A DNA stretch of 40,716 bases from an uncultured Deferribacteres bacterium (GCA_964014485.1 CAXHAT010000056.1:1-40716), one strand, 5' to 3'; positions 27,662 through 40,249 are shown, counted from the stretch's first letter. The notes: generated by a model from the letters alone, not told the origin. Numbers and translations: made by a program.

Positions 27662-29227
27662 CTATTTGGCATAGCCAAATGTACGGTATTCTCGAATTAC
27701 GGATACTTTGATTTGTCCCGGATATGAAAGCGTATCTTTAATTTGTCCTGAAATGCTCGAGGCGATAAAATCAGGATGCGAATCGTCGGTGTTATCGTAT
27801 CCGGCTATAACACGGATCTCCTTACCTGCTTGAATTGCATAGCTTTGCGTCACGCCTTTGAGGGAATTGGCGATCTGCTCGAGATTTCGCAAACGATCGA
27901 AGTAGCTCTGCAAATCTTCTTTCACGGCCCCTGGACGATACATGCTTATCTCATTTGCAGAAGCGACAAGCACGGAAATCAATGATTGCCCAATCGAGTC
28001 CGGCGGTTTATTTGCAAAAGCAATAGCCTTTAAAACTTCTTCGTTTTCGCCGTATTTCTTGGCTAAATCCGCCGACAATTCCGACGTAGTGCCGTGAGTG
28101 TATGCGTCAATAGCGTTACCGATTTCATGTAAGAGACCGGCTCGTTTTGCAACTTTCGTGTCCAATTCCAAATCTGAGGCCATCAAGCCGGCTAAGGTTG
28201 CAACCTCGATTGAATGCTGAAGAAGATTCTGACCCTGGCCAGTATGAAACTTGAGCTGTCCGATCAATTTGACAAGCTCATGGTGCAAGCTGTGCAGCCC
28301 GACTTCAACGAGTGCTTCTTCACCGTACTCAAAGATTTTCTCATCTATTTCTTGCCGGGTCTTATCAATGACCTCTTCGATCCTCCCTGGATGAATCCGG
28401 CCGTCGTAGATCAATTTTTCCAGAGCCAACTTAGCGACTTCCCGCCGTATAGGATCAAAACCGGAAAGCATCACTAAGCCAGGCGTATCATCAATTAAAA
28501 CTTCAACGCCGGTTGCAGCTTCAAAAGTTCTTATGTTTCTACCTTCTCTGCCGATTATCCTGCCCTTCATTTCATCCGCAGGCAAACTTACTGGACTTAC
28601 CGTCGCATCAACCACATGGCTAACTCCGCTGCGCTCTATGGCCTGGACAATAATTTCTTTTGATTTTTGTTCTGCGGACTCTTTTGCCATCTCAATAATT
28701 TCCCGAGTCTTGAATGACGCTTCCTGGCGTGCTAAGTCAAGGACGTTATCGAGTTGTATTTTCTTGGCTTCTTCAACTGTTAGGCCTGAAATTTCCTTAA
28801 GTTTTGAGCTTTGTTCTAGAATAAGCTGATCCAAATCAGCCGACTTGTCTTTTAAAAGCTGATCAAGGCGCTCTATTTCCTGCTGTTCCTCAAAAATCTT
28901 CTTCTCTTTATTATTTAAAATGTCAACTTTGCGGTCCAGATTGGTTTCTCGCGCGCTAAGCTTTTTCTCTCGGTTTTTGAATTGTTGTAAGCGCTCTCTC
29001 TCTTCATGATGAAGTTTTTCTCGAAGCTTTAGAATCTCTTCTTCAGCATCCAACAAACGCGCTTTTTTAACGTCTTCCGCTTCTTGTTGCGCCTCATTTA
29101 CAACTCGCGTCGCATATTCCTCCGCTCGAGATATGCGATCCTGTCCAATTTTCGCTCTTAGCTTCCAACCTCCCCAGAATGCCAAACTGGAAACAACAAG
29201 AAATATTATTGCTCCTAAAACATCCAT
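27662..29227 (-). CDS. rny: Ribonuclease Y homolog with degenerate HD domain
   Basis: N-terminal TM, coiled coil, KH (KGRIIGREGRNIR), DGRIHPGRIEE, AIQAG.EIRV, YPGQIKV.VIRE; HD motif reads HE. Confidence 0.92.
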   Translation of the reverse strand: MDVLGAIIFLVVSSLAFWGGWKLRAKIGQDRISRAEEYATRVVNEAQQEAEDVKKARLLDAEEEILKLREKLHHEERERLQQFKNREKKLSARETNLDRKVDILNNKEKKIFEEQQEIERLDQLLKDKSADLDQLILEQSSKLKEISGLTVEEAKKIQLDNVLDLARQEASFKTREIIEMAKESAEQKSKEIIVQAIERSGVSHVVDATVSPVSLPADEMKGRIIGREGRNIRTFEAATGVEVLIDDTPGLVMLSGFDPIRREVAKLALEKLIYDGRIHPGRIEEVIDKTRQEIDEKIFEYGEEALVEVGLHSLHHELVKLIGQLKFHTGQGQNLLQHSIEVATLAGLMASDLELDTKVAKRAGLLHEIGNAIDAYTHGTTSELSADLAKKYGENEEVLKAIAFANKPPDSIGQSLISVLVASANEISMYRPGAVKEDLQSYFDRLRNLEQIANSLKGVTQSYAIQAGKEIRVIAGYDNTDDSHPDFIASSISGQIKDTLSYPGQIKVSVIREYRTFGYAK

Positions 29228-29314
29228 TCCGCCTCCAATAAAGAAATCCCTGATCAGCAAACGCATGTAAAACGTATGTAAACAGGGATAAACTTCTATT
29301 TGAAAAATTTATAG

Positions 29315-29611
29315 TCAAGAATTGATATTGTCCTCAGTATTTTCTATCAGTTCGGAAAGCCGCATAAGATTTTTTTCGTATTCCGCCGTCTGGGCGCCAC
29401 GCAACTCGCGCTCTCGAAACAACTCATCCGCCAAGTTTAGCGCTGTCAACACTGCAACCTTCAAAGGGGATTTTGCTGTAGAATTCTTTTCGACCTCATG
29501 CATTGCATGATCGACAAAATCCGCAATACGACGCGTATATTCCGCGTCGGCTGAACCTTTGATCGAGTAGTCGGAGCCGAAGATTTTTAGTTTCACATGG
29601 TTTTTCTGCAA
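29315..29611 (-). CDS. zapA: Cell division protein ZapA
   Basis: IFG..Y, IA.FVD..M, VAVLTALNLADEL; pheT-zapB-zapA-rny synteny. Confidence 0.9.
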   Translation of the reverse strand: MQKNHVKLKIFGSDYSIKGSADAEYTRRIADFVDHAMHEVEKNSTAKSPLKVAVLTALNLADELFRERELRGAQTAEYEKNLMRLSELIENTEDNINS

Positions 29612-29642
29612 ACCATCCGTCCTATTGATACTCGAAAATCAG

Positions 29643-29897
29643 TTACTCGTTCTTAAGCAATGCTTGGACTTTCGGCAAGATGAATGAAAGCTTCGATCTC
29701 ACAAGCCCGAGTTGTTGCTGTAATTGCTTCAATTCCGCTACTTCTTTTTTCTGGTCGGTCAGAATGGAATTCAATTTTGTAAATTCTTCGTTGAGTGCAG
29801 ATAGCTCACGTTTCAGTGTCTGGTTCTCCCTCTCAGTTCTGTTCAAACGAGCAATGAGAGAGACGATTTTGGATTCGAGAGCATTAAATTGTTCCAT
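29643..29897 (-). CDS. ZapB-like coiled-coil protein
   Basis: MEQFNALESKI..LI..L..EN..L coiled coil lying between pheT and zapA. Confidence 0.7.
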   Translation of the reverse strand: MEQFNALESKIVSLIARLNRTERENQTLKRELSALNEEFTKLNSILTDQKKEVAELKQLQQQLGLVRSKLSFILPKVQALLKNE

Positions 29898-29911
29898 ACC
29901 GAGCAATGCAA

Positions 29912-32302
29912 TCACCCTCTGAGCGTTGCGTCGAAGTTCTTTTTGAGCTTTTTCAAAACCCGGTCTATAAGTTTTTCGACTTCACGAGATTTTATTGTTC
30001 GCTTGGTAGACTGAAATTTAAGCGCATAGGCCAAGCTCTTTTTACCCGTAGGGATTGATTTCCCTTCATAAATGTCAAAGAGGCTAATTTGGGTCAGGAG
30101 ACTTCCAGCTTCCTTTTTCAACAATGCTTCTACATCAGAAGCTGCGACGCTTTTATCAAGAACAATAGCCAGATCTCTTTCAACTTCCGGAAAAGGTGAG
30201 ATTTCATGATAAATCTCCTGAGGAGTCGCCGATTTCTTCAATCGCCCACAATCAATCTCAAAGCCGAAAACATCCTGTGTTATATCAAAAAGATCACAAA
30301 CTTGGGGACTAATTTTGCCGATTGTCCCGATGATTGTATCGTTAACTTTGATTGCCGCTCCGAATTCAAAGAATGCTTGTTCTATCGGATTGAACATCAC
30401 CTCTTCTCTTAAACCAGTTCGATGAAGCAATTCAATTGCGATCCCTTTTAAATCAAAAAACGAAATTGGGCTTGCCTTGCTTTGCCACGACTCATGAAAT
30501 CTGTTTCCGGAGAGAACCCCGCCTAAATGTTGGAATTCGTGTATGGTGCCGTCTTTCGCCTTGTGAAAAGCGCTGCCAATTTCAAAAAAGCGAAGCTGCG
30601 TTTGTTTACGATTAACATTGTAGGAAACGGCTGGAAGCATCGTGCTAAGAAGAGACGGGCGCAGAACCGCCAAATCTTCACTCAGAGGATTCAGCAGCCC
30701 GACCAAGTGCTCTTGCTCTTCAACAAACGGCAGACAAAACTTTTCGTTTGTCATGCTAAAAGTTACAATTTCCGAGAGCGAAATATTCAGGCAGGTTTTT
30801 CTTAGTGTATCAGCAAAAATCCGGTTTCTGTTTGGCGTGTGTTGCAGGTCGAATCTGTCATTAAAATTTGCAGCGACCTCGTCATAACCGAAAACGCGAA
30901 TAACTTCCTCAACGAGATCAATTTCGCGCACTAGATCGGGCCTAAAAGTCGGCGGAGTGACGTTCCATTCTTTCCCGTTCTTCTCAACCGTACATCCCAG
31001 GCCTTCAAAAATGGATGACATAGTTGCATCGTCTATCTCCGCACCACAAATTGAAACGGCGCGCTGAGGGCGGAACGAAATTTTTTGAGAATGAATAATT
31101 GATGGATAGGCGTCGTTCAAATTTGACGTAGGCATCCCCCCTGCCGTCTCCAAAATCAGATGTGTTGCAATATCCGAAGCGTTAGCGCATCCGTTCGGGT
31201 CGACTCCTCGCTCAAAACGGCGACTGGCTTCCGTGAAAATGCTCAACTGACGCACTGTTTTTCGAATCGTTTCTGGAGAAAAGTAAGCAGACTCCAAAAG
31301 CAAATTTGTTGTGTCATCGCTGACTTCGGAATTCTCACCGCCCATGACGCCGGCTAAAGCAACCGGGGTTTCGCCGTCACAAATAAGAAGATTGTTTTCT
31401 TTGAGTTCGTGGCTTTTACCATCCAGAGTGACGAAATTCTCGCCTGTTTGAGCAAGACGCACGACAATTTCTTGATTCTCTAGCTTATCTAAATCAAAAG
31501 CGTGCAAAGGTTGTCCGGTCAAAAGCATGACGCAATTTGTTGCGTCAACGACGTTGTTTATTGGCCTGACGCCAGCGCTCTTAAGACGCTGCGCCAACCA
31601 ATCTGGGGACGGGCCAATTTTGACGTCCCGAATAACTCGCGCGGTATAGCGGGGGCACCCTCGACTGTCATCAAGTCGAACTTTGTATTCTTCTTCAGGC
31701 TGAACTCTATCGGTTATTTGAGGGTATTCATATTTAAAAGCTCTGCCTTCACTCAAACAAATTTCGCGAGCAATTCCAATCATTCCCAGGCAATCGGGAC
31801 GATTGGGCGTTATCGCCACTTCGATCACAGGATCATCATCGAAATGAACCAAGTCTCCGAATGCTTGTCCCTTAGAAGCGTCTCCATTCAAAACCATTAT
31901 CCCCGAAGACTCTTCTGAAATGCCTAGCTCAGCTTCAGAACAAATCATTCCCTGAGACAAAGTTCCGCGCAATTTCGCTTTTCGAATTTTCATTCCGCCC
32001 GGCAAAACTGAACCGACTGTGGCCACAGGAACTCTTTGCCCTTTTGCGACATTCGGAGCGCCGCATACAATCTGCAAATCCGCCTCGTCGCCAACGGAAA
32101 CCTGGCATACGCTCAAGTGATCGGAACCCTCGATTTTTGCCGCGTCAATAATTTCTCCAACCACTATCCCGGCGAAATCAAAACGTTCCGAGCGCTTGAC
32201 GCTTTCGACTTCTATGCCCAGCATCGTCAATCGCTCAACGACTTCATCGAGTGAGAGCTTGGTTCCCGATAATTCCTTTAACCAATTAAATCCGAATTGC
32301 AC
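29912..32302 (-). CDS. pheT: Phenylalanine--tRNA ligase beta subunit
   Basis: IVCGAPN, SQGMICS..ELG, TPNRPD, RPINNVVDATN, RFERGVD, RPDL..EIDLVEE, C-terminal FDX-ACB domain. Confidence 0.98.
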   Translation of the reverse strand: MQFGFNWLKELSGTKLSLDEVVERLTMLGIEVESVKRSERFDFAGIVVGEIIDAAKIEGSDHLSVCQVSVGDEADLQIVCGAPNVAKGQRVPVATVGSVLPGGMKIRKAKLRGTLSQGMICSEAELGISEESSGIMVLNGDASKGQAFGDLVHFDDDPVIEVAITPNRPDCLGMIGIAREICLSEGRAFKYEYPQITDRVQPEEEYKVRLDDSRGCPRYTARVIRDVKIGPSPDWLAQRLKSAGVRPINNVVDATNCVMLLTGQPLHAFDLDKLENQEIVVRLAQTGENFVTLDGKSHELKENNLLICDGETPVALAGVMGGENSEVSDDTTNLLLESAYFSPETIRKTVRQLSIFTEASRRFERGVDPNGCANASDIATHLILETAGGMPTSNLNDAYPSIIHSQKISFRPQRAVSICGAEIDDATMSSIFEGLGCTVEKNGKEWNVTPPTFRPDLVREIDLVEEVIRVFGYDEVAANFNDRFDLQHTPNRNRIFADTLRKTCLNISLSEIVTFSMTNEKFCLPFVEEQEHLVGLLNPLSEDLAVLRPSLLSTMLPAVSYNVNRKQTQLRFFEIGSAFHKAKDGTIHEFQHLGGVLSGNRFHESWQSKASPISFFDLKGIAIELLHRTGLREEVMFNPIEQAFFEFGAAIKVNDTIIGTIGKISPQVCDLFDITQDVFGFEIDCGRLKKSATPQEIYHEISPFPEVERDLAIVLDKSVAASDVEALLKKEAGSLLTQISLFDIYEGKSIPTGKKSLAYALKFQSTKRTIKSREVEKLIDRVLKKLKKNFDATLRG

Positions 32303-32318
32303 GTCTATTCCAAAATAT

Positions 32319-33302
32319 TTAGAATTGCTGGATGAATCGAAGATCGTTTTCGTAGAAAATACGAATATCGCTGACTTGATATTTTAAGATAGCGAGACGT
32401 TCCAGCCCCATGCCAAAGGCGTAACCCGTGTACTTTTCAGAATCATAATCTACAAAGTTAAACACTGCGGGATCGACCATGCCTGCGCCTGAAATCTCCA
32501 TCCACTTTCCGCCTAAAGAAGCGCAGCGAACGTCATATTCGGCGCTTGGCTCGGTAAACGGGAAGAAGCTCGGTCGAAATCTGATTTCCGTATCATCGCC
32601 AAACATTTTTCGCATAAATGCGAGTAAAACGCCTTTCAAATCCGCGAAAGTCACACCTTCATCGACAACGAGACCTTCAATTTGATGAAACATTGGCGAG
32701 TGTGTAGCGTCCGGGGTGTCCTTTCTAAAACAGCGGCCCGGCGCAATCATGCGGATTGGCGGTTTCTGTTTTTCCATTGTCCGGATTTGAACGGGAGATG
32801 TGTGTGTTCTCAGAACAGAATGATTCGGCAAGTAAAACGTGTCCTGCATATCCCGGCTTGGGTGATCTTCGGGGATGTTCAGCGCTTCAAAGTTGTAATA
32901 ATCGCTTTCGACTTCCGGGCCCGTTTCCACGGAAAAGCCCATGCCGACAAAAATTGATTTCACCTCTTCGAGAACATCTATCAGCGGGTGTGAATATCCG
33001 ACAAACGGCGGATTGCCGGGTAAGGTAACATCGATTGCTTGGGAACTTGAAGCGGACGTTTTAGAGAAGCGAGTTTTGAGCTGATCGATTTCCGAATGCA
33101 GAAAAGTTTTGATGTCATTAATTTCTTTTCCCGCCGCAGGTCGCTCCGCAGGAGGCAGTCCCCCAAGATTTTTGAATAAATCAGCCAGTACGCCCTTTTT
33201 CCCCAAGTACTTTATCCGCAAAGTTTCAACGTCATTTGCGGATTCAACAACAGCAGAGTCGCTTTTGAACTGCTTCTTCAGGTTCTCGGAATCAAGCAAC
33301 AT
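32319..33302 (-). CDS. pheS: Phenylalanine--tRNA ligase alpha subunit
   Basis: HPSRDMQDTFY, LRTHTSP, FHQIEGL, FRPSFFPFTEPS, AFGMGLER. Confidence 0.98.
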   Translation of the reverse strand: MLLDSENLKKQFKSDSAVVESANDVETLRIKYLGKKGVLADLFKNLGGLPPAERPAAGKEINDIKTFLHSEIDQLKTRFSKTSASSSQAIDVTLPGNPPFVGYSHPLIDVLEEVKSIFVGMGFSVETGPEVESDYYNFEALNIPEDHPSRDMQDTFYLPNHSVLRTHTSPVQIRTMEKQKPPIRMIAPGRCFRKDTPDATHSPMFHQIEGLVVDEGVTFADLKGVLLAFMRKMFGDDTEIRFRPSFFPFTEPSAEYDVRCASLGGKWMEISGAGMVDPAVFNFVDYDSEKYTGYAFGMGLERLAILKYQVSDIRIFYENDLRFIQQF

Positions 33303-33913: not shown

Positions 33914-34429
33914 TTATTTTTTTACAAGATACATGATCATATTCCGCCCTTCCATTAACGGCGCTCGCTCTACTTTTGCAATATCGCTAAGCTCTTCGAT
34001 CAAGTCTTCCAGTACTCTTTTACCAAATTCTTTGTACGCTAACTCTCGGCCGCGAAAAAGAACCGTAGCTTTCACTTTGCTGCCGCTCTCAAGGAATTTA
34101 CGCGCATGTTTTGCCTTAAACTCAAAGTCATGCGTCTCAATTTTCGGCCGCAGACGGATTTCTTTAAGATTTATGACGGCTTGCTTTTTCTTGTTTGACT
34201 TTTCTTTCTTACTCAGCTCGTACTTGTACTTGCCGAAATCCATAATCCGACAAACAGGCGGGTCGGCGTTGGGCGCAACCTCAACCAAATCAAGTCCTCT
34301 TCCCTGAGCCGTTTCCAAAGCTTCCTGAGAAGAAAGTATTCCAAGTTGTTCCCCGTCTTCTGCGATAACCCGAAGTTTCGCGGCTCTGATTCTGTCGTTA
34401 ACCCGAACCAGGTTTTTCTTTTTGCTAAT
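33914..34429 (-). CDS. infC: Translation initiation factor IF-3 with ATT start codon
   Basis: Frame stays open upstream of the ORF-track start: ATT-SKKKNLVRVNDRIRAAKLRVIAEDGEQLGI..., with GGGAG RBS 6 nt upstream; DLVEVAP...PPVCRIMDFGKYKYE. Confidence 0.95.
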   Translation of the reverse strand: MSKKKNLVRVNDRIRAAKLRVIAEDGEQLGILSSQEALETAQGRGLDLVEVAPNADPPVCRIMDFGKYKYELSKKEKSNKKKQAVINLKEIRLRPKIETHDFEFKAKHARKFLESGSKVKATVLFRGRELAYKEFGKRVLEDLIEELSDIAKVERAPLMEGRNMIMYLVKK

Positions 34430-34446
34430 CTTTTACTCCCGACTAA

Positions 34447-34504: not shown

Positions 34505-34519
34505 CGTTTCAGAGCAAAG

Positions 34520-34593
34520 TGGGCGATACTGGATTTGAACCGGTGACCTCTTGCATGTCAAGCAAGCACTCTAACCAACTGAGCTAATCGCCC
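34520..34593 (-). tRNA. tRNA-Val(GAC)
   Basis: Reverse complement GGGCGATTAGCTCAGTTGGTTAGAGTG-CTTGC-TTGACAT-GCAAG...GGTTCAAATCC..ATCGCCCA. Confidence 0.97.
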
Positions 34594-34632: not shown

Positions 34633-34661
34633 AATTTAAACCGAGACGCTATAAAAGTCAA
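34633..34661 (-). promoter_or_regulatory. Putative sigma70 promoter for tRNA-Val
   Basis: Minus strand TTGACT-17 nt-TAAATT followed by GC-rich discriminator AGCCGCC. Confidence 0.6.
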
Positions 34662-34752
34662 GAAAATAATGTGTTGAGAAAGATTTGCGACAGCGCGCCT
34701 TTTAGAGCCTGTTTTCGCCCGTCCCTTTCTCGAAGTCCATACATCGCCAACT

Positions 34753-35793
34753 TCAGTCTTCAAGGGAAGGCGGTTTGCGGAACTTTTTAATCGAACTCCT
34801 TTTTTTCTTCTGCTTCAATCTGCCTTCAATCGATGACTTTGTGCGCTTCGTCGGCACACGTTTCTTTGCGACGGCGTTCATAGATGTGAGCTTCTCGATC
34901 AAGCGCTCCCATGCTAACTCGCGATTCTTATGTTGTGAGCGGCTTTCCGTCGCGGTAACGATTAGACCTGTGGGCAAATGTTTAATGCGCACTGCAGTTT
35001 CAACCTTATTTCGATGCTGCCCGCCTGGCCCGCTTGAGCGATAAACGGTGATTTCGACTTCGTCCTTAACCTGTTCTTTAGAGCGAAATTGATATTTTTT
35101 TCCAGTTTTACTTTGCCGCGCTTCCTGGCCAATAAGGTCGTTCAAGGCGGCTGTGATGTTCGGAAAACAATCAATCGCCCCAGCTTCGCGTAAGGCCGCT
35201 TCCGAAGTCGTTCCGGTGGTCACGCCGACAAACGGCACGTTGGCTTTCTTCGCAGCGCCAGCATCGGCGAGACTGTCGCCGAAAAAGATTGCTTCGTCGG
35301 CGGTAACTTTCATTTTCCGTAATCCTAGGAAAATCGAATCCGGCGCCGGTTTTTGGTTCTCAACATCGTCAGCGCCGACGACAACTTCGAACAAAGATGT
35401 TAAATCATAATTTTCGAGAATCTCAACGAGCCGATTGTGATTCTTTGTGGAAATCAAACCAAAACGTAACGGCGTTTTGGCGGCGACTTCGCGAACGGAA
35501 TCAGCGACGCCTTTGTATAAAAAAGTCTTCTCGACCATGATTTTGTCAGCCAATGAAATGAACGCCAGTTTTGCTTCCGCCGGGTCTTCAACGGCAAAAC
35601 GTTTGAAAATCACTTCTAACGGCAATCCTACGGTCTTATGAATTTCATCAACGGAGCGCTTGGGAGCGCCAACCTTCTCAAGCGCGAAATTGACACACTC
35701 GACAATCGCTTCGGAAGAGTCTCCTAAAGTGAAATCGAAATCGAAAAAAATGACTTTCGCCCAATTTTGGATGGGTCGTTCCATGATCTTCAC
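34753..35793 (-). CDS. HAD-family phosphatase fused to an ArfB-like GGQ peptidyl-tRNA hydrolase domain
   Basis: DFDFT, STK, KP, GDSLAD HAD motifs, then RSSGPGGQHRNKVETAVR...RSQHKNR and a basic tail KKRVPTK...RLKQKKKRSSIKK; start 35793 or 35784. Confidence 0.88.
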   Translation of the reverse strand: MKIMERPIQNWAKVIFFDFDFTLGDSSEAIVECVNFALEKVGAPKRSVDEIHKTVGLPLEVIFKRFAVEDPAEAKLAFISLADKIMVEKTFLYKGVADSVREVAAKTPLRFGLISTKNHNRLVEILENYDLTSLFEVVVGADDVENQKPAPDSIFLGLRKMKVTADEAIFFGDSLADAGAAKKANVPFVGVTTGTTSEAALREAGAIDCFPNITAALNDLIGQEARQSKTGKKYQFRSKEQVKDEVEITVYRSSGPGGQHRNKVETAVRIKHLPTGLIVTATESRSQHKNRELAWERLIEKLTSMNAVAKKRVPTKRTKSSIEGRLKQKKKRSSIKKFRKPPSLED

Positions 35794-35812
35794 AAAGTTT
35801 AGAGTGAAAAGA

Positions 35813-35843
35813 AAAAGCCCGGCTTAGAACCAACCGGGCTTTT
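35813..35843 (-). terminator. Rho-independent terminator downstream of trxA
   Basis: AAAAGCCCGG-11 nt-CCGGGCTTTT. Confidence 0.75.
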
Positions 35844-35875
35844 CAAAAATTCTATTTGAGCAATGAATTCGGAGC

Positions 35876-36202
35876 TTAAGCAAGAACTGCATCCAGGCGT
35901 TTTTTGATTTCGCCTTTGGGCACGGCGCCAATAATTGAATCGACGACTTTCCCGCCATTGAAAATCAAAAGCGCAGGGATGCTGCGAATGTTATGCTGAG
36001 CAGAAGCCTGCATATTCGAATCAACGTCAAGTTTGCCGATTTTGGCTTTGCCTTCGTACTCAGTTGCCAAATCTGCAATTGCAGGGGCGATCATTTTACA
36101 AGGTCCGCACCACTCGGCCCAGAAATCGACCAATACCGGTTGGTTTGCTTCCAGAACTTCGGTGTTAAAGTTTGCGTCCGTAAATTCTAATGGGGTGGCC
36201 AT
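35876..36202 (-). CDS. trxA: Thioredoxin
   Basis: VLVDFWAEWCGPCK, IRSIP; AAGGAG RBS before ATG 36202. Confidence 0.97.
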   Translation of the reverse strand: MATPLEFTDANFNTEVLEANQPVLVDFWAEWCGPCKMIAPAIADLATEYEGKAKIGKLDVDSNMQASAQHNIRSIPALLIFNGGKVVDSIIGAVPKGEIKKRLDAVLA

Positions 36203-36245
36203 TTTTATCTCCTTATCTCTTGAAATTGATTTAAAAGCATATCTT

Positions 36246-37703
36246 TCAGTCTTTCCTGAAAGATATTGATGAAAGCGAAATAAACAAAAAACCAAAAAGA
36301 AACAATAGGAAAAACGGAATAGAAAGGTACAATTCTTTTGAGAAAAAATAAGCTAAACCGAAAGTGAAGTAGCCTGCAAAGCATAGCTCCAATAAATGCA
36401 AACGATTGCGTTGCGTTTTGTATATTTTCTTTTTCCAGGAATCTCGCCGCGTCTCAATCCGAAATTTCGGCGTCCGAATGAATGCGCTTTTGTGGCCAAA
36501 AACCGCTTCGAGTACTGCGCGGCCGTTGTTTATAGACAAGCCGATTCCCATGGCCATGAGTGCCGGCACGTAAAGCATTTCCGGAAAAAGCCGACCGCAC
36601 GAAAGTTTAATCGCATATCCGTAATATACGACAACCGAAATCGTCGCCGCAAAAAATGTCAGCAAATATGGAATGATCGCCATCCTGACGTCGTAGTGCA
36701 CTTGCAAATTGAGAATCGGAATTAACAATAAAGCGGGCACGGTCATCATTAAGTAGGAAAAATTGCTGCCAAGATGGACAATTGCTTCAAATTTAACCAG
36801 AGTCGGAAGTTTGGAACGCCATATCGTTGGAATCAACTTGAGCCCGGTTTGGACAGAGCCTTTTGCCCAACGATGCTGCTGACTCTTGTAAGCGTTCATT
36901 TCTACCGGCAGTTCCGCCGGCGCCACAACGTCGGGCAAAAATACGAATTTCCAGCCCGCCAATTGTGCGCGGTAACTTAAGTCTAGGTCTTCGGTCAACG
37001 TATCGTGCTGCCAGCCGCCTGCATCCAGAATCGTTTGTCTGCGCCAAATGCCCGCAGTGCCGTTAAAGTTAAAGAATTTGCCGGATCGATTACGCGCATA
37101 ATGTTCGATGAGAAAATGCGCATCAAGAAAGATCGCCTGCAGCTTGGTAAGAAGCGAATAATCACGATTGATATGTCCCCACCTCGTCTGCACCATGCCA
37201 AAATTGTCATCGGTCAGCAAATACGGAATCGTTTGGCGAAGAAAGTCTTTTTGAGGGACAAAATCAGCATCGAATACAGCGAAAAACTCGGAATCGGTTT
37301 GATGCAGTCCATGCTCAAGCGCCCCTGCCTTAAAGCCCGATCGATCAACCCGGCGAATGTGCGCAATGTTTAACCCCTTCCGAGCTAACATTTTAACGAG
37401 CCGTGCGGTCAGTCTCACCGAATCATCGGTCGAATCATCCAATACTTGAATTTCCAAGCGGTCAAGCGGGTAGTCCAGATTGGCGACGGCCTTCAACAAT
37501 CTTTTAACGACGTATCGTTCATTAAAAATCGGCAATTGCACCGTCACCTTCGGCCAATTTTCAGGCGCGGGCGCGGGCTTGATTGGATCGACTTTGTATT
37601 TTTCTCGCAGCGCCAAAAGCGCATACTTATGTATGCCAAAAAAAATCAGCACGATGAGGGCTATCGCATAAAAAGCGATGAGCAGAATATGTCCCGCTGT
37701 CAT
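36246..37703 (-). CDS. Processive GT2 glycosyltransferase (cellulose-synthase-like/CslA-like)
   Basis: QLPIFNE, LDDSTD, GFKAGAL, FDADF, TLTED, QQHRW (QxxRW) and C-terminal TM helices. Confidence 0.93.
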   Translation of the reverse strand: MTAGHILLIAFYAIALIVLIFFGIHKYALLALREKYKVDPIKPAPAPENWPKVTVQLPIFNERYVVKRLLKAVANLDYPLDRLEIQVLDDSTDDSVRLTARLVKMLARKGLNIAHIRRVDRSGFKAGALEHGLHQTDSEFFAVFDADFVPQKDFLRQTIPYLLTDDNFGMVQTRWGHINRDYSLLTKLQAIFLDAHFLIEHYARNRSGKFFNFNGTAGIWRRQTILDAGGWQHDTLTEDLDLSYRAQLAGWKFVFLPDVVAPAELPVEMNAYKSQQHRWAKGSVQTGLKLIPTIWRSKLPTLVKFEAIVHLGSNFSYLMMTVPALLLIPILNLQVHYDVRMAIIPYLLTFFAATISVVVYYGYAIKLSCGRLFPEMLYVPALMAMGIGLSINNGRAVLEAVFGHKSAFIRTPKFRIETRRDSWKKKIYKTQRNRLHLLELCFAGYFTFGLAYFFSKELYLSIPFFLLFLFGFLFISLSSISFRKD

Positions 37704-37859
37704 GACGGCCTGACCTCCGAAACTTCCAAATAATTCATGTTCAAAATCATCTCGCAACTAAATACCAGGTTTATAACACGTCTCCAGGCAGTCCTATTCC
37801 CAGGCCAGAGGGCTGTGCAACGCGGTTTGTTAAACTTCAATTCTCAAGTTCTTTTGCGA

Positions 37860-38885
37860 CTATTTCTGAAGCGATGCAACAACATTGTTTTCAATCTCAT
37901 AAAGCACGGAAACAACGCCGTTTTCCGCGTCATAAACCATCGAATCGCGTACTTCGGAAAGATACATTTCAATATTCTCGCGCAAAATCGGCATAGCTTC
38001 ATCTTTGGTTGTCTGATGATCCATCACGTCCCAAATAATGATAGCGACGCCCACAATCGGCCCGAGCAGTTTTCCTCCCGCTGAACCGGCGACTTTCTGT
38101 CCCGTTTTGGCGGCCATTTTCGCGGTTGATTTTGCGGCCAGCTTAGTCGAAAGAGAACTTCCCATTTTTAGCCCAACTGCTTTTAACGGCTTGGCTAGCA
38201 AAACAGCGCCGCCAACGGACGAAGCAGTCAGCGTTTTCAAGGTCAAGGAAACTTGCCGGTTACCTTCGACGCCTTCGGTCATAACTGCGATATTATGTAA
38301 ATACCACGACCACTTTTCACGAGGAATGTTATAGCGTTCAGGAATCTCGTCTAATTTGGAGCGAATTTCTGAAACGTAAACATTGACGGCCTCATTGGTG
38401 ATTTTTTCCAACTCGAACTGTGCAAGCTGAGGCTGAAGGGCGCGATTCGAAAACTCTCGCTGAATTTCTTCGGTGATTTTTTCTGAAGCAGTTGGCTGCG
38501 TCTCATCAAGATAGTGCAAAACGGAGTGATAGAGTCCCTTCAGCCCGATTAACTGCTGATTCCAATAATCAAAATACCACGGCAGAAAATCGTCATCCAC
38601 ACGCTGCATTAATTTTTCCGTCCAGCCCTTCAGGCCGTTCGCCGCCGTTTCCTCCGCCCGCAATCTGGCGTGCTCAAGTGCTGCTATAATATCTTGATCG
38701 ACTGCATCCCACTCGATGGGTTTCGCTATGATCGGCTTTGAAGTTGGCGCTTCAACCGCGCTTTCGTTTTCAGGGAGCCGAATCAGTTTTTTGCCGACCA
38801 AAGACAGAACAATGCCGACAATGACAAGCCAGACAAGACCGTTCAAAAATGACAGAAACTTCCGAAAACCGCTTTTCTCATTCAT
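37860..38885 (-). CDS. Hypothetical membrane-anchored helical protein
   Basis: 341-aa ORF with AAGGAG RBS, N-terminal TM and an Ala/Gly/Lys-rich segment followed by hydrophobic GGKLLGPIVGVAIIIWD. Confidence 0.75.
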   Translation of the reverse strand: MNEKSGFRKFLSFLNGLVWLVIVGIVLSLVGKKLIRLPENESAVEAPTSKPIIAKPIEWDAVDQDIIAALEHARLRAEETAANGLKGWTEKLMQRVDDDFLPWYFDYWNQQLIGLKGLYHSVLHYLDETQPTASEKITEEIQREFSNRALQPQLAQFELEKITNEAVNVYVSEIRSKLDEIPERYNIPREKWSWYLHNIAVMTEGVEGNRQVSLTLKTLTASSVGGAVLLAKPLKAVGLKMGSSLSTKLAAKSTAKMAAKTGQKVAGSAGGKLLGPIVGVAIIIWDVMDHQTTKDEAMPILRENIEMYLSEVRDSMVYDAENGVVSVLYEIENNVVASLQK

Positions 38886-39169: not shown

Positions 39170-40249
39170 ATGTATCATTTCATGCGAAACATGCCAGCTT
39201 TTTCTATTGCGTTTTTTTGTCTTTTATCAGCATCGCTTTATGCTCAAAATAGCGCTGTTTGGGCGGATTGGAATTTTTCGGAAGCGCGTCAATTCGATTT
39301 TTGGATGGGCGAATGGCGGGTGAATAATCGCTTTATCCAGGAAGACAAATCATGGAAGGACGACGGGGCCGCTCACGTCAAGATTTATCGCGTTTTGGGC
39401 GGCAAAGCCATTCTCGAATTTTGGGACGGGGATATTCGCGGCGGCACGCCATTGAAAGGATTTAGTTTGCGATTCTATGATCGTAAAATCAAACAATGGC
39501 GGCTTGCACTAAATTGGCCGGGGCCCAATCGTCCCGGCTTTGGCTTTTTGGACGGGCAATTTCGGCATGGGCGCGGTGAGTTTTTTAGTACCAGCCATGA
39601 CACCGCCGGCAAAGAAATCATTTCACGATATTCGTTTGCTGACGTCTCCCCTACTTCGTTTCGCTGGGACGACGGCTAATCGCGGGACGGCGGCAAAACC
39701 TGGTCGGCAAATTGGGTTATGGAATTTTCGCGCGTTGCAGCGCGCGCATCGTGGCCGGATGATGACCAACAGTTCCACACTTACAACGACAACTCCCTCT
39801 GCGATACGGAAGAAGCCAGAGCGTTTGATTTTCTGGCGGGAACTAGGCAAGGCGAATTCGTTTCTGGCAATGGCGGCGAGCAATCTACTGCGCCCGCTGT
39901 TCTCAAAGCTTGGAAAGTTCTGAACGGCTGTGGAATTCTGCAAATTTTGACGACGAAACTCAACGGAAAAGACTATCAAGAACTGCGCCTGCGATCATAC
40001 ATTCCTTCGAAAAAAGTATGGCTTGTCCTCCGGCTCGACAGTTTGCCCGAAACTGGGTTTCAGCAGCAAGTCGGTGCGTTCGCTGACGGCAAAATCGAGC
40101 TGACCAGCATCGAACAAGACATGGGTAGCGCCACGACTCAGACAAAGTGGGACAAGCTGGATCAAGATGAAATTTTATACGAAATGAGCCAATCTCAAGA
40201 CCAAGGGTGGCAAGTTTTTGGGGAAGTCCGCCTAAAGCGTTCGAACTAA
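39170..40249 (+). pseudogene. Exported two-repeat DUF1579-like protein interrupted by an in-frame TAA at 39677-39679
   Basis: ORFs 39170-39679 and 39719-40249 share a frame; read-through gives FRWDDG*SRDGGKTWSANWVMEFSR; repeats begin QFDFWMGEW and AFDFLAGTR. Confidence 0.75.

Follow-up and report, generated by a model that had tools for sequence, protein, structure and literature searches.

A predicted HAD phosphatase fused to an ArfB-like ribosome-rescue module in uncultured, mostly marine bacteria

Ribosome rescue by ArfB is seen as the work of a single, self-sufficient protein. Here we describe a reading frame in a 40,716-nucleotide stretch of DNA from an uncultured Deferribacteres bacterium (GCA_964014485.1 CAXHAT010000056.1:1-40716, the whole of which we call the window) that places an ArfB-like module behind a predicted HAD phosphatase in one protein. 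Four described systems come closest, and the fusion departs from each of them: i) classical ArfB, defined in the available text of Burroughs & Aravind 2019 (PMC6514570) as a GGQ domain that lacks alpha-i and has a charged helix at the C-terminus, and grouped there with eukaryotic C12orf65/mtRF-R, shares with the fusion a GGQ domain collinear with domain 3 of RF1/RF2 and with C12orf65, the lack of alpha-i, and an extended linker with a basic helix, but the fusion adds a 220-residue N-terminal HAD phosphatase domain, and the word "phosphatase" occurs 0 times in that text; ii) E. coli ArfB/YaeJ and human ICT1, whose insert-bearing form the same text calls "ArfB class 1", have in common with the fusion the GGQ, a tail that aligns gap-free, and all five residues required in YaeJ, whereas the fusion lacks the 21+3-residue alpha-i insert, scores below the equivalog cut-off, and is joined to a HAD domain; iii) the PrfH-RtcB pair and the C12orf65-like/MJ1316 fusions, as far as the same text describes them, likewise link a stop-independent GGQ hydrolase to a phosphorylated-end enzyme by neighbourhood or fusion, but where those have an RNA ligase or a 2',3'-cyclic-phosphate-binding domain, the partner in the window is a capped HAD of small-molecule type; and iv) the PGP/PpaX group (COG0546-like), with the Bacteroides fragilis putative HAD hydrolase 3d6j as the closest structure, has the same four HAD motifs and C1 cap, while the fusion carries substitutions near motifs II/III and in the cap, an N-terminal extension, and the C-terminal ArfB module.

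A literature search, which did not extend to the architecture lists in the supplement of PMC6514570, found no publication on a fusion of HAD with RF-1 or of a phosphatase with ArfB, in agreement with an earlier note on the window whose author did not know the architecture as characterised. These comparisons confirm the HAD-ArfB architecture as an apparently new one, built on a rescue factor that is itself of a known kind.

The fusion reading frame and its recurrence

The uninterrupted frame (34753..35793, minus strand; 346 amino acids plus stop) opens with GTG at 35793. An alternative ATG at 35784, three codons in, yields the 343-residue form found in the database (P0001); the GTG start gives an N-terminus equal in length to those of the relatives in the alignment. 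Pfam HAD_2 matches residues 15-191 (E 3.1e-36; 125.6 bits, cut-off 23.8) and RF-1 (PF00472) matches residues 243-337 (E 6.8e-26; 90.9 bits, cut-off 35), both far above threshold, which bears out the single frame with complete HAD and release-factor domains proposed in the earlier note. Only HAD families precede RF-1 in the Pfam scan, and the codon-recognition (PCRF) domain PF03462 has no match in the fusion protein.

Five segments, all on the minus strand, make up the protein: i) an N-terminal extension (residues 1-12, 35758..35793), in which P7, W11 and A12 are invariant in the fusions covering them, and the first ten residues of which are missing from most stand-alone HAD relatives, which have other letters at 11-12 and begin to align at query residues 12-15; ii) a HAD-IA phosphatase domain (about residues 13-212, 35158..35757) that includes a C1 helical cap and bears motif I D18xD20xT22 (35728-35742), motif II S115-T116-K117, motif III K148-P149, and motif IV G172-D173-x3-D177; iii) a poorly conserved linker of ~20 residues (about residues 221-242, 35068..35133); iv) a short GGQ peptidyl-tRNA-hydrolase domain without the alpha-i insert (residues 243-306, 34876..35067), with the GGQ itself at residues 257-259 (35017-35025); and v) an extended linker of ArfB type with the basic C-terminal helix behind it (residues 307-346, 34756..34875). 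The DxDxT, STK, KP, GDxxxD and GGQ motifs named from the window alone thus all lie where they had been placed.

The architecture recurs across genomes, the point on which the earlier note had proposed to judge it. A word-based search of 5.8 billion proteins, grouped in clusters at 90% identity, finds HAD + RF-1 in eight further clusters besides that of the window's own protein (P0002-P0009, 322-352 aa), which come from several sources and are 49-54% identical to the window protein over 93-100% of the query; one such fusion cluster has 9 members, one of them on 20 contigs. A genome of another genus in the window's own family (G001) carries the fusion too, 50% identical and within a contig of 1.08 Mb. 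In an alignment of nine fusions (the window protein and P0002-P0009, all full or near-full sequences), D18/D20/T22, S115/T116/K117, K148, D173/D177 and the GGQ are invariant in 9/9, so that both catalytic sites still look intact, as they had in the single sequence.

An assembly artefact, a recent stop loss, or a free ArfB made from an internal start would leave no functional fusion at all. Such readings can draw on the fragmented, metagenome-type assembly behind the window (465 contigs), on a public annotation that names the HAD half only, and on a terminator-like hairpin directly upstream of the frame, which makes its promoter doubtful. Against them stand the eight further clusters from several sources and the 1.08-Mb contig of G001, whose equal architecture is the independent support for the fusion. 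Contigs of three public DNA runs also cover the linker, including the region of about 35080-35150 singled out in the earlier note, with zero differing letters (X2 record 8, 35050-35509; X3 record 10, 35073-35325; X1 record 2, 35062-35158), but as these runs belong to a single study and possibly to the source sample, we do not count them as independent. Nor does the linker hold an in-frame ATG or GTG; the nearest start-type codon, TTG at L217, has no Shine-Dalgarno-like sequence, and an internal Met in the G001 linker is a single case that is not conserved among the fusions. Finally, the relatives' stand-alone arfB genes have no HAD gene beside them that a stop loss could have joined, which rules out stop loss between two neighbouring genes.

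Recurrence, linker coverage and the start-codon scan together make assembly error, strain-specific stop loss and a conserved internal start all unlikely, and the escape routes that the earlier note had left for its own claim are thereby closed. The view that there is no functional fusion is already largely refuted, and we give it almost no credence. In a seawater metatranscriptome (X5), two 151-nt contigs match 34746-34896 and 34970-35105 at 95-99%; their source is a relative, they may reflect DNA carry-over, and they cover only two short parts of the frame. We conclude that the gene fusion is genuine and full-length, a status confirmed by sequence comparison, with an apparently intact HAD phosphatase and an apparently intact ArfB-like module.

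The rescue half and the phosphatase half

The rescue half is the short classical ArfB/C12orf65-like form and not the E. coli YaeJ/ICT1 form, since it lacks the alpha-i insert and is collinear with C12orf65. Specifically, i) the stand-alone proteins of the relatives (115-156 aa) match residues about 228-346 from one end to the other, with 42-53% identity; ii) against E. coli ArfB, the module and its stand-alone relatives alike show a 21+3-residue gap in place of alpha-i and a gap-free tail; iii) in a PDB search with the module, C12orf65 (7a5h_C) pairs with module residues 24-115 without interruption (E 9.4e-10), E. coli ArfB is matched mainly through the tail (E 3-4e-12), and the best scores go to the GGQ domains of RF2/RF1; and iv) the NCBIfam ArfB equivalog NF006718 scores 79.3 of the 100 bits needed, in two stretches, a shortfall that follows from the missing insert and places the module outside class 1, while the PrfH model TIGR03072 reaches 77.4 against 166.65. 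The ArfB/YaeJ-like character claimed in the earlier note therefore stands for the tail and needs refining for the domain.

The GGQ is invariant in 9/9 fusions and in 12/12 stand-alone relatives. In the alignment, R325, L326, K329, K336 and R339, which are likewise invariant in 9/9 fusions, correspond to YaeJ R118, L119, K122, K129 and R132, residues that the available text of Kogure et al. (PMC3950681) reports as required for hydrolysis and ribosome binding. Given the homology, the conserved essential residues and its standing as the sole such gene of the genome, the module very probably works as an ArfB, and the fusion would give tractable access to the classical ArfB proteins of bacteria, an uncharacterised clade related to human C12orf65/MTRFR.

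Two RF-1 proteins seen along the way have unusual ends. One stand-alone ArfB-like protein (L011:1477-1947, in G006; 156 aa) carries ~40 extra residues past the basic tail, unlike the others, and the RF-1-only protein P0270 (220 aa), 56% identical to the ArfB module over 91% of the module, has an N-terminal extension of ~100 residues with no Pfam family on record.

The window's own genome (G000; 8.4 Mb, 97% complete, 465 contigs) has RF-1 domains in three genes: besides the fusion there are two full-length release-factor frames, of 373 and 361 aa, and no separate ArfB gene. It carries tmRNA and SmpB; ArfA was not found in it, nor was any NFACT_N match over the cut-off. On these grounds the fusion is the sole candidate, as judged from its domains, for tmRNA-independent, stop-independent release in this genome. 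The matches listed for G001 are likewise the fusion and two release-factor-sized frames. Public names of fusion proteins (P0003, P0009, P0366 and P0367 among them) are phosphoglycolate phosphatase, HAD hydrolase-like protein, and HAD-IA family hydrolase, and the rescue half is absent from their annotation; that the label "HAD hydrolase" alone hides the genome's only ArfB serves as a warning.

The HAD half has the attributes of HAD superfamily IA in its sequence, its AF2 model and its fold neighbours: motifs I-IV, and a C1 cap inserted after motif I, modelled as helices 27-40, 48-52, 59-65 and 71-89 between motifs I and II. Among solved structures, 3d6j comes closest (E 7.2e-29 by sequence, TM 0.88 by fold). 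The best 40 PDB fold neighbours are all HAD-IA chains; where a function is named, it is that of a small-molecule phosphatase or mutase (AlnB, BT2127 pyrophosphatase, beta-phosphoglucomutase, and the phosphatase domain of MtlD), and the rest are putative phosphatases or hydrolases. Because the half scores below every NCBIfam equivalog cut-off (PGP_bact TIGR01449, 95.6 against 180; PpaX NF009804, 82.8 against 218), its substrate cannot be named; the nearest stand-alone HAD relatives fall below these cut-offs as well (14/14 scanned), and the fused HAD is the best of four PGP-like matches in its own genome, none of them over the cut-off. We place the half among the C1-capped HAD-IA enzymes of the phosphoglycolate-phosphatase/PpaX-like group, with a small phosphorylated molecule as its predicted substrate, and with its motifs intact we have high confidence that it is an active phosphatase.

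The fold also bears on a more ambitious explanation, raised in the earlier note as a coupling of rescue to dephosphorylation, in which the ArfB tail would bring the HAD domain to stalled ribosomes and the HAD would dephosphorylate a product of stalling, in the manner of PrfH-RtcB; candidate targets include, for example, a 3'-phosphate left where mRNA or tRNA has been cleaved, the 3' end of a modified tRNA, or a nucleotide that the stalled ribosome releases or binds. Polynucleotide 3'-phosphatases of the HAD superfamily are of the cap-less kind, whereas the fused HAD has the closed C1-cap fold typical of small-molecule enzymes. The five genomic contexts of stand-alone HAD relatives that we examined, which are metabolic and unrelated to one another, also speak against it, as does the lack of RNA-repair genes in the flanks of both fusion loci. 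A scan of metagenome contigs with the HAD-only alignment yielded at least 9 HAD-only relatives, 32-42% identical, and no ArfB module at the loci of the 9 listed. One of the five contexts is a ribosome-maturation neighbourhood, in which the HAD relative (36% identical) lies within phoH - ybeY - era - (149 aa) - HAD - recO (L114:1334-6287).

How the halves sit relative to each other is suggested by the AF2 model of the whole protein (pLDDT 92, pTM 0.68), in which the GGQ domain is followed by helix 287-306, an extended segment, and helix 319-339. The variable linker, its low pLDDT (below 50 at residues 228-231) and the pTM point to a flexible tether. A regulatory fusion, in which the HAD would sense a metabolite or phosphorylation state and gate access to the GGQ, for example through an autoinhibition relieved by stress, would account for the aromatic residue kept at linker position 233 (Y/F in 9/9 fusions) and for an N-terminal extension that is conserved and confined to fusions, and the pTM leaves scope for a defined domain arrangement. 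It sits poorly with the retention of every catalytic residue of a turnover-competent phosphatase, an interface between the halves is without support, and we know of no precedent; we consider it improbable. Docking of HAD residues 1-222 against ArfB residues 236-346 with the nine-row alignment scored 0.00, which bears neither way on an interface.

Origin of the fusion and what it may do

The fusion is kept, as far as the sequences reveal, in a narrow clade of uncultured, mostly marine bacteria. In a survey of the order at E <= 1e-18 (29 genomes, including that of the window), 2 genomes (G000 and G001) have the fusion, 19 have a stand-alone gene only, and 8 have no match, one of which (G009, 67% complete) shows a partial match at a contig end; two unpublished genomes (G016 and G023) are within the 19, without which the count is 17/27, and no conclusion depends on them. 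Submitters label the fusion records "candidate division KSB1 bacterium", "Deferribacteres bacterium", or simply "bacterium", and the DNA runs in which the stretch occurs carry the label marine metagenome. An affiliation of the carriers with Acidobacteriota was considered and set aside; it rested on the two best named matches, which form the outgroup in the ArfB-module tree.

Wider searches yielded no second invention of the architecture. Among the best 150 matches of a nine-fusion profile to 1.84 billion 50%-identity representatives, one protein has both halves (P0008, 568 bits) and the other 149 are HAD-only (151-211 bits); the best 120 of 398 matches to the ArfB module among proteins of 190-606 aa comprise HAD + RF-1 (5 besides the window's own), RF-1 alone, and PCRF + RF-1. 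No independent HAD + RF-1 architecture appears among either the best 150 or the best 120 of 398, below which weaker independent fusions could score. A scan of genome contigs with the fusion alignment, using patterns in the GGQ region, gave at least 80 loci, and those listed are of stand-alone or RF1/RF2 type with no fusion among them; a search of the ESM Atlas returned HAD clusters only (scores 0.79) and no large HAD + RF-1 cluster.

The HAD tree places the 10 fused halves on one side of a branch with SH-aLRT 100, opposite the 32 nearest HAD-only relatives, and on this basis the fusion arose once, to judge from the tree; the ArfB-module tree (26 rows, 111 columns) leaves the branching of the 10 fusions unsettled (p-AU 0.367 for one clade). 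The site of that event can be read from synteny. In the window the fusion follows a thioredoxin gene (35876..36295, minus strand; likely start M32, about 36202) and a family-2 glycosyltransferase gene (GT2; 36246..37757, minus strand), both conserved in relatives. Stand-alone arfB lies directly after thioredoxin in three genomes of one genus (G003, G006 and G008) and in one of another (G007), all in the same family; in the first three it also lies behind the GT2 orthologue (57-67% and 61-64% identity), the same order as GT2 - thioredoxin - fusion in the window. The arfB of G004, before which its contig begins, falls outside this comparison. Since these sister genera have a stand-alone arfB at the equivalent site, the window fusion occupies the ancestral arfB site, and the HAD coding sequence entered between thioredoxin and arfB. 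In G001 the GT2-thioredoxin pair has no arfB behind it and the fusion has a PQQ-type beta-propeller gene on one side and alanine racemase on the other, a location that we read as a secondary move. The relatives with stand-alone arfB have no close HAD orthologue, their best matches being 24-31% identical.

Further out in the order, arfB has other neighbours: a QTMAN_N-type (tRNA-queuosine mannosyltransferase-like) glycosyltransferase in two genomes (L009:278-1381 and L010:14-1072), and a UPF0029 (IMPACT/YigZ-like) gene with lytB in two others (L008:1843-3081 and L015:1981-3219).

We propose that the fusion is one polypeptide with two working parts on a flexible tether of ~20 residues, retained by selection. 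The C-terminal 110 residues would serve as the organism's ArfB, the basic tail probing the empty mRNA channel of a ribosome stalled on a truncated message and the GGQ loop then hydrolysing peptidyl-tRNA without a stop codon, as a backup to tmRNA-SmpB. The N-terminal 220 residues would act as a phosphatase on a small substrate, apart from the chemistry of peptide release, so that the two activities would be merely co-expressed and tethered. The sequences themselves establish the architecture and how well it is conserved, its single origin, the synteny, and the lack of a second ArfB-type gene in the genome. With the question of coupling set aside, we hold with considerable assurance that the fusion is genuine, its ArfB module functional and its phosphatase active; the whole proposal, in which we infer both the two activities and the absence of mechanistic coupling between them, seems to us the likeliest, though only somewhat better than an even bet. 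Two independent activities are modestly favoured by the capped fold, the flanks free of RNA-repair genes, and the lack of independent recurrence.

Several observations tell against one part or another of this proposal. i) The fusion has been kept over ~50% divergence, with no split form seen in the clade, and such persistence argues for some advantage of the joined halves. ii) The fused HAD domains share invariant residues at positions where stand-alone relatives mostly have others, namely N118 after motif II (Y/F in 21/29 relatives), A150 after motif III (D/H in 19/29) and A74 in the cap (F in 23/29), as well as the conserved N-terminal extension with P7 and W11 found in fusions only; these residues could point to a different substrate or to a contact newly made, either of which would fit coupling better than indifference, although they may mark either a changed pocket or merely the clade. 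iii) The stem branch of the fused HAD clade is long (0.75 changes per site). iv) Its miss of the NF006718 cut-off sets the module apart from the biochemically characterised ArfB type, and as far as we searched, no characterisation of a classical ArfB in bacteria was found. C12orf65/mtRF-R acts on split large subunits rather than on 70S-type complexes.

Both the coupled and the regulatory model stay in play because the fusion has persisted, the stem branch is long, and some residues are found in fusions only. Coupled rescue can further claim the two intact active sites, the want of a close HAD orthologue in the stand-alone-arfB relatives, and the precedents of the prfH-RtcB neighbourhoods and the C12orf65-like/MJ1316 fusion (PMC6514570, available text); set against the cap, the flanks, the metabolic contexts and the absence of recurrence described above, it is in our judgement unlikely, at perhaps the odds of an outsider. 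In a more specific form, to which we assign a still lower chance, a re-tuned HAD at non-stop ribosomes would strip phosphate from a damaged RNA or tRNA end or from a stalling nucleotide, the re-tuning consisting of the small residues at three pocket-side positions and the new N-terminal segment; if true, the fusion would both release the peptide and heal or clear a phosphorylated product, as a single-chain counterpart of PrfH-RtcB rescue and repair.

Whether the halves are merely tethered, as we prefer, or coupled, a lineage whose only ArfB is tied to a predicted phosphatase amounts to a natural experiment on what other events take place at stalled ribosomes and how much N-terminal bulk a GGQ domain can bear. 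Should the substrate of the phosphatase turn out to be an RNA or a nucleotide that stalling produces, rescue and repair would be linked in a new way; if not, the locus offers a clean, datable gene fusion at a conserved site.

Surroundings of the fusion in the window

Between thioredoxin and the fusion lies the terminator-like hairpin (35812..35844, minus strand; 13 pairs and a T run; a consensus match only), which ends 19 nt before the fusion GTG, so that the fusion would be transcribed either by read-through past the hairpin or from an unrecognised promoter. Downstream come tRNA-Val(GAC) (34519..34593, minus strand), with a promoter-like site at 34633-34661 (again a consensus match only), and then infC, rpmI, rplT, pheS and pheT. 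The earlier note had the position of tRNA-Val and infC-rpmI-rplT right, but the weight that it gave to them does not carry over: none of the other loci, whether the G001 fusion locus or the relatives' arfB loci, has a tRNA gene, infC or rplT as a neighbour, and the adjacency is thus incidental.

An ordinary housekeeping run downstream (27662-33302, minus strand) comprises pheS, pheT, a zapB-like gene, zapA and RNase Y, and three reading frames have no Pfam match at E <= 1e-5 (37860-38885, minus strand, 341 aa; 39170-39679, plus strand, 169 aa; 39719-40249, plus strand, 176 aa). The infC frame (33914-34429, minus strand) opens just past a TAA and has no ATG, GTG or TTG at its start; from the TTG chosen by the ORF finder, the IF3_N match begins only at model position 30. 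A non-canonical start codon is familiar for infC, and the likely start here is ATT at 34427-34429, with GGGAG before it at 34436-34440.

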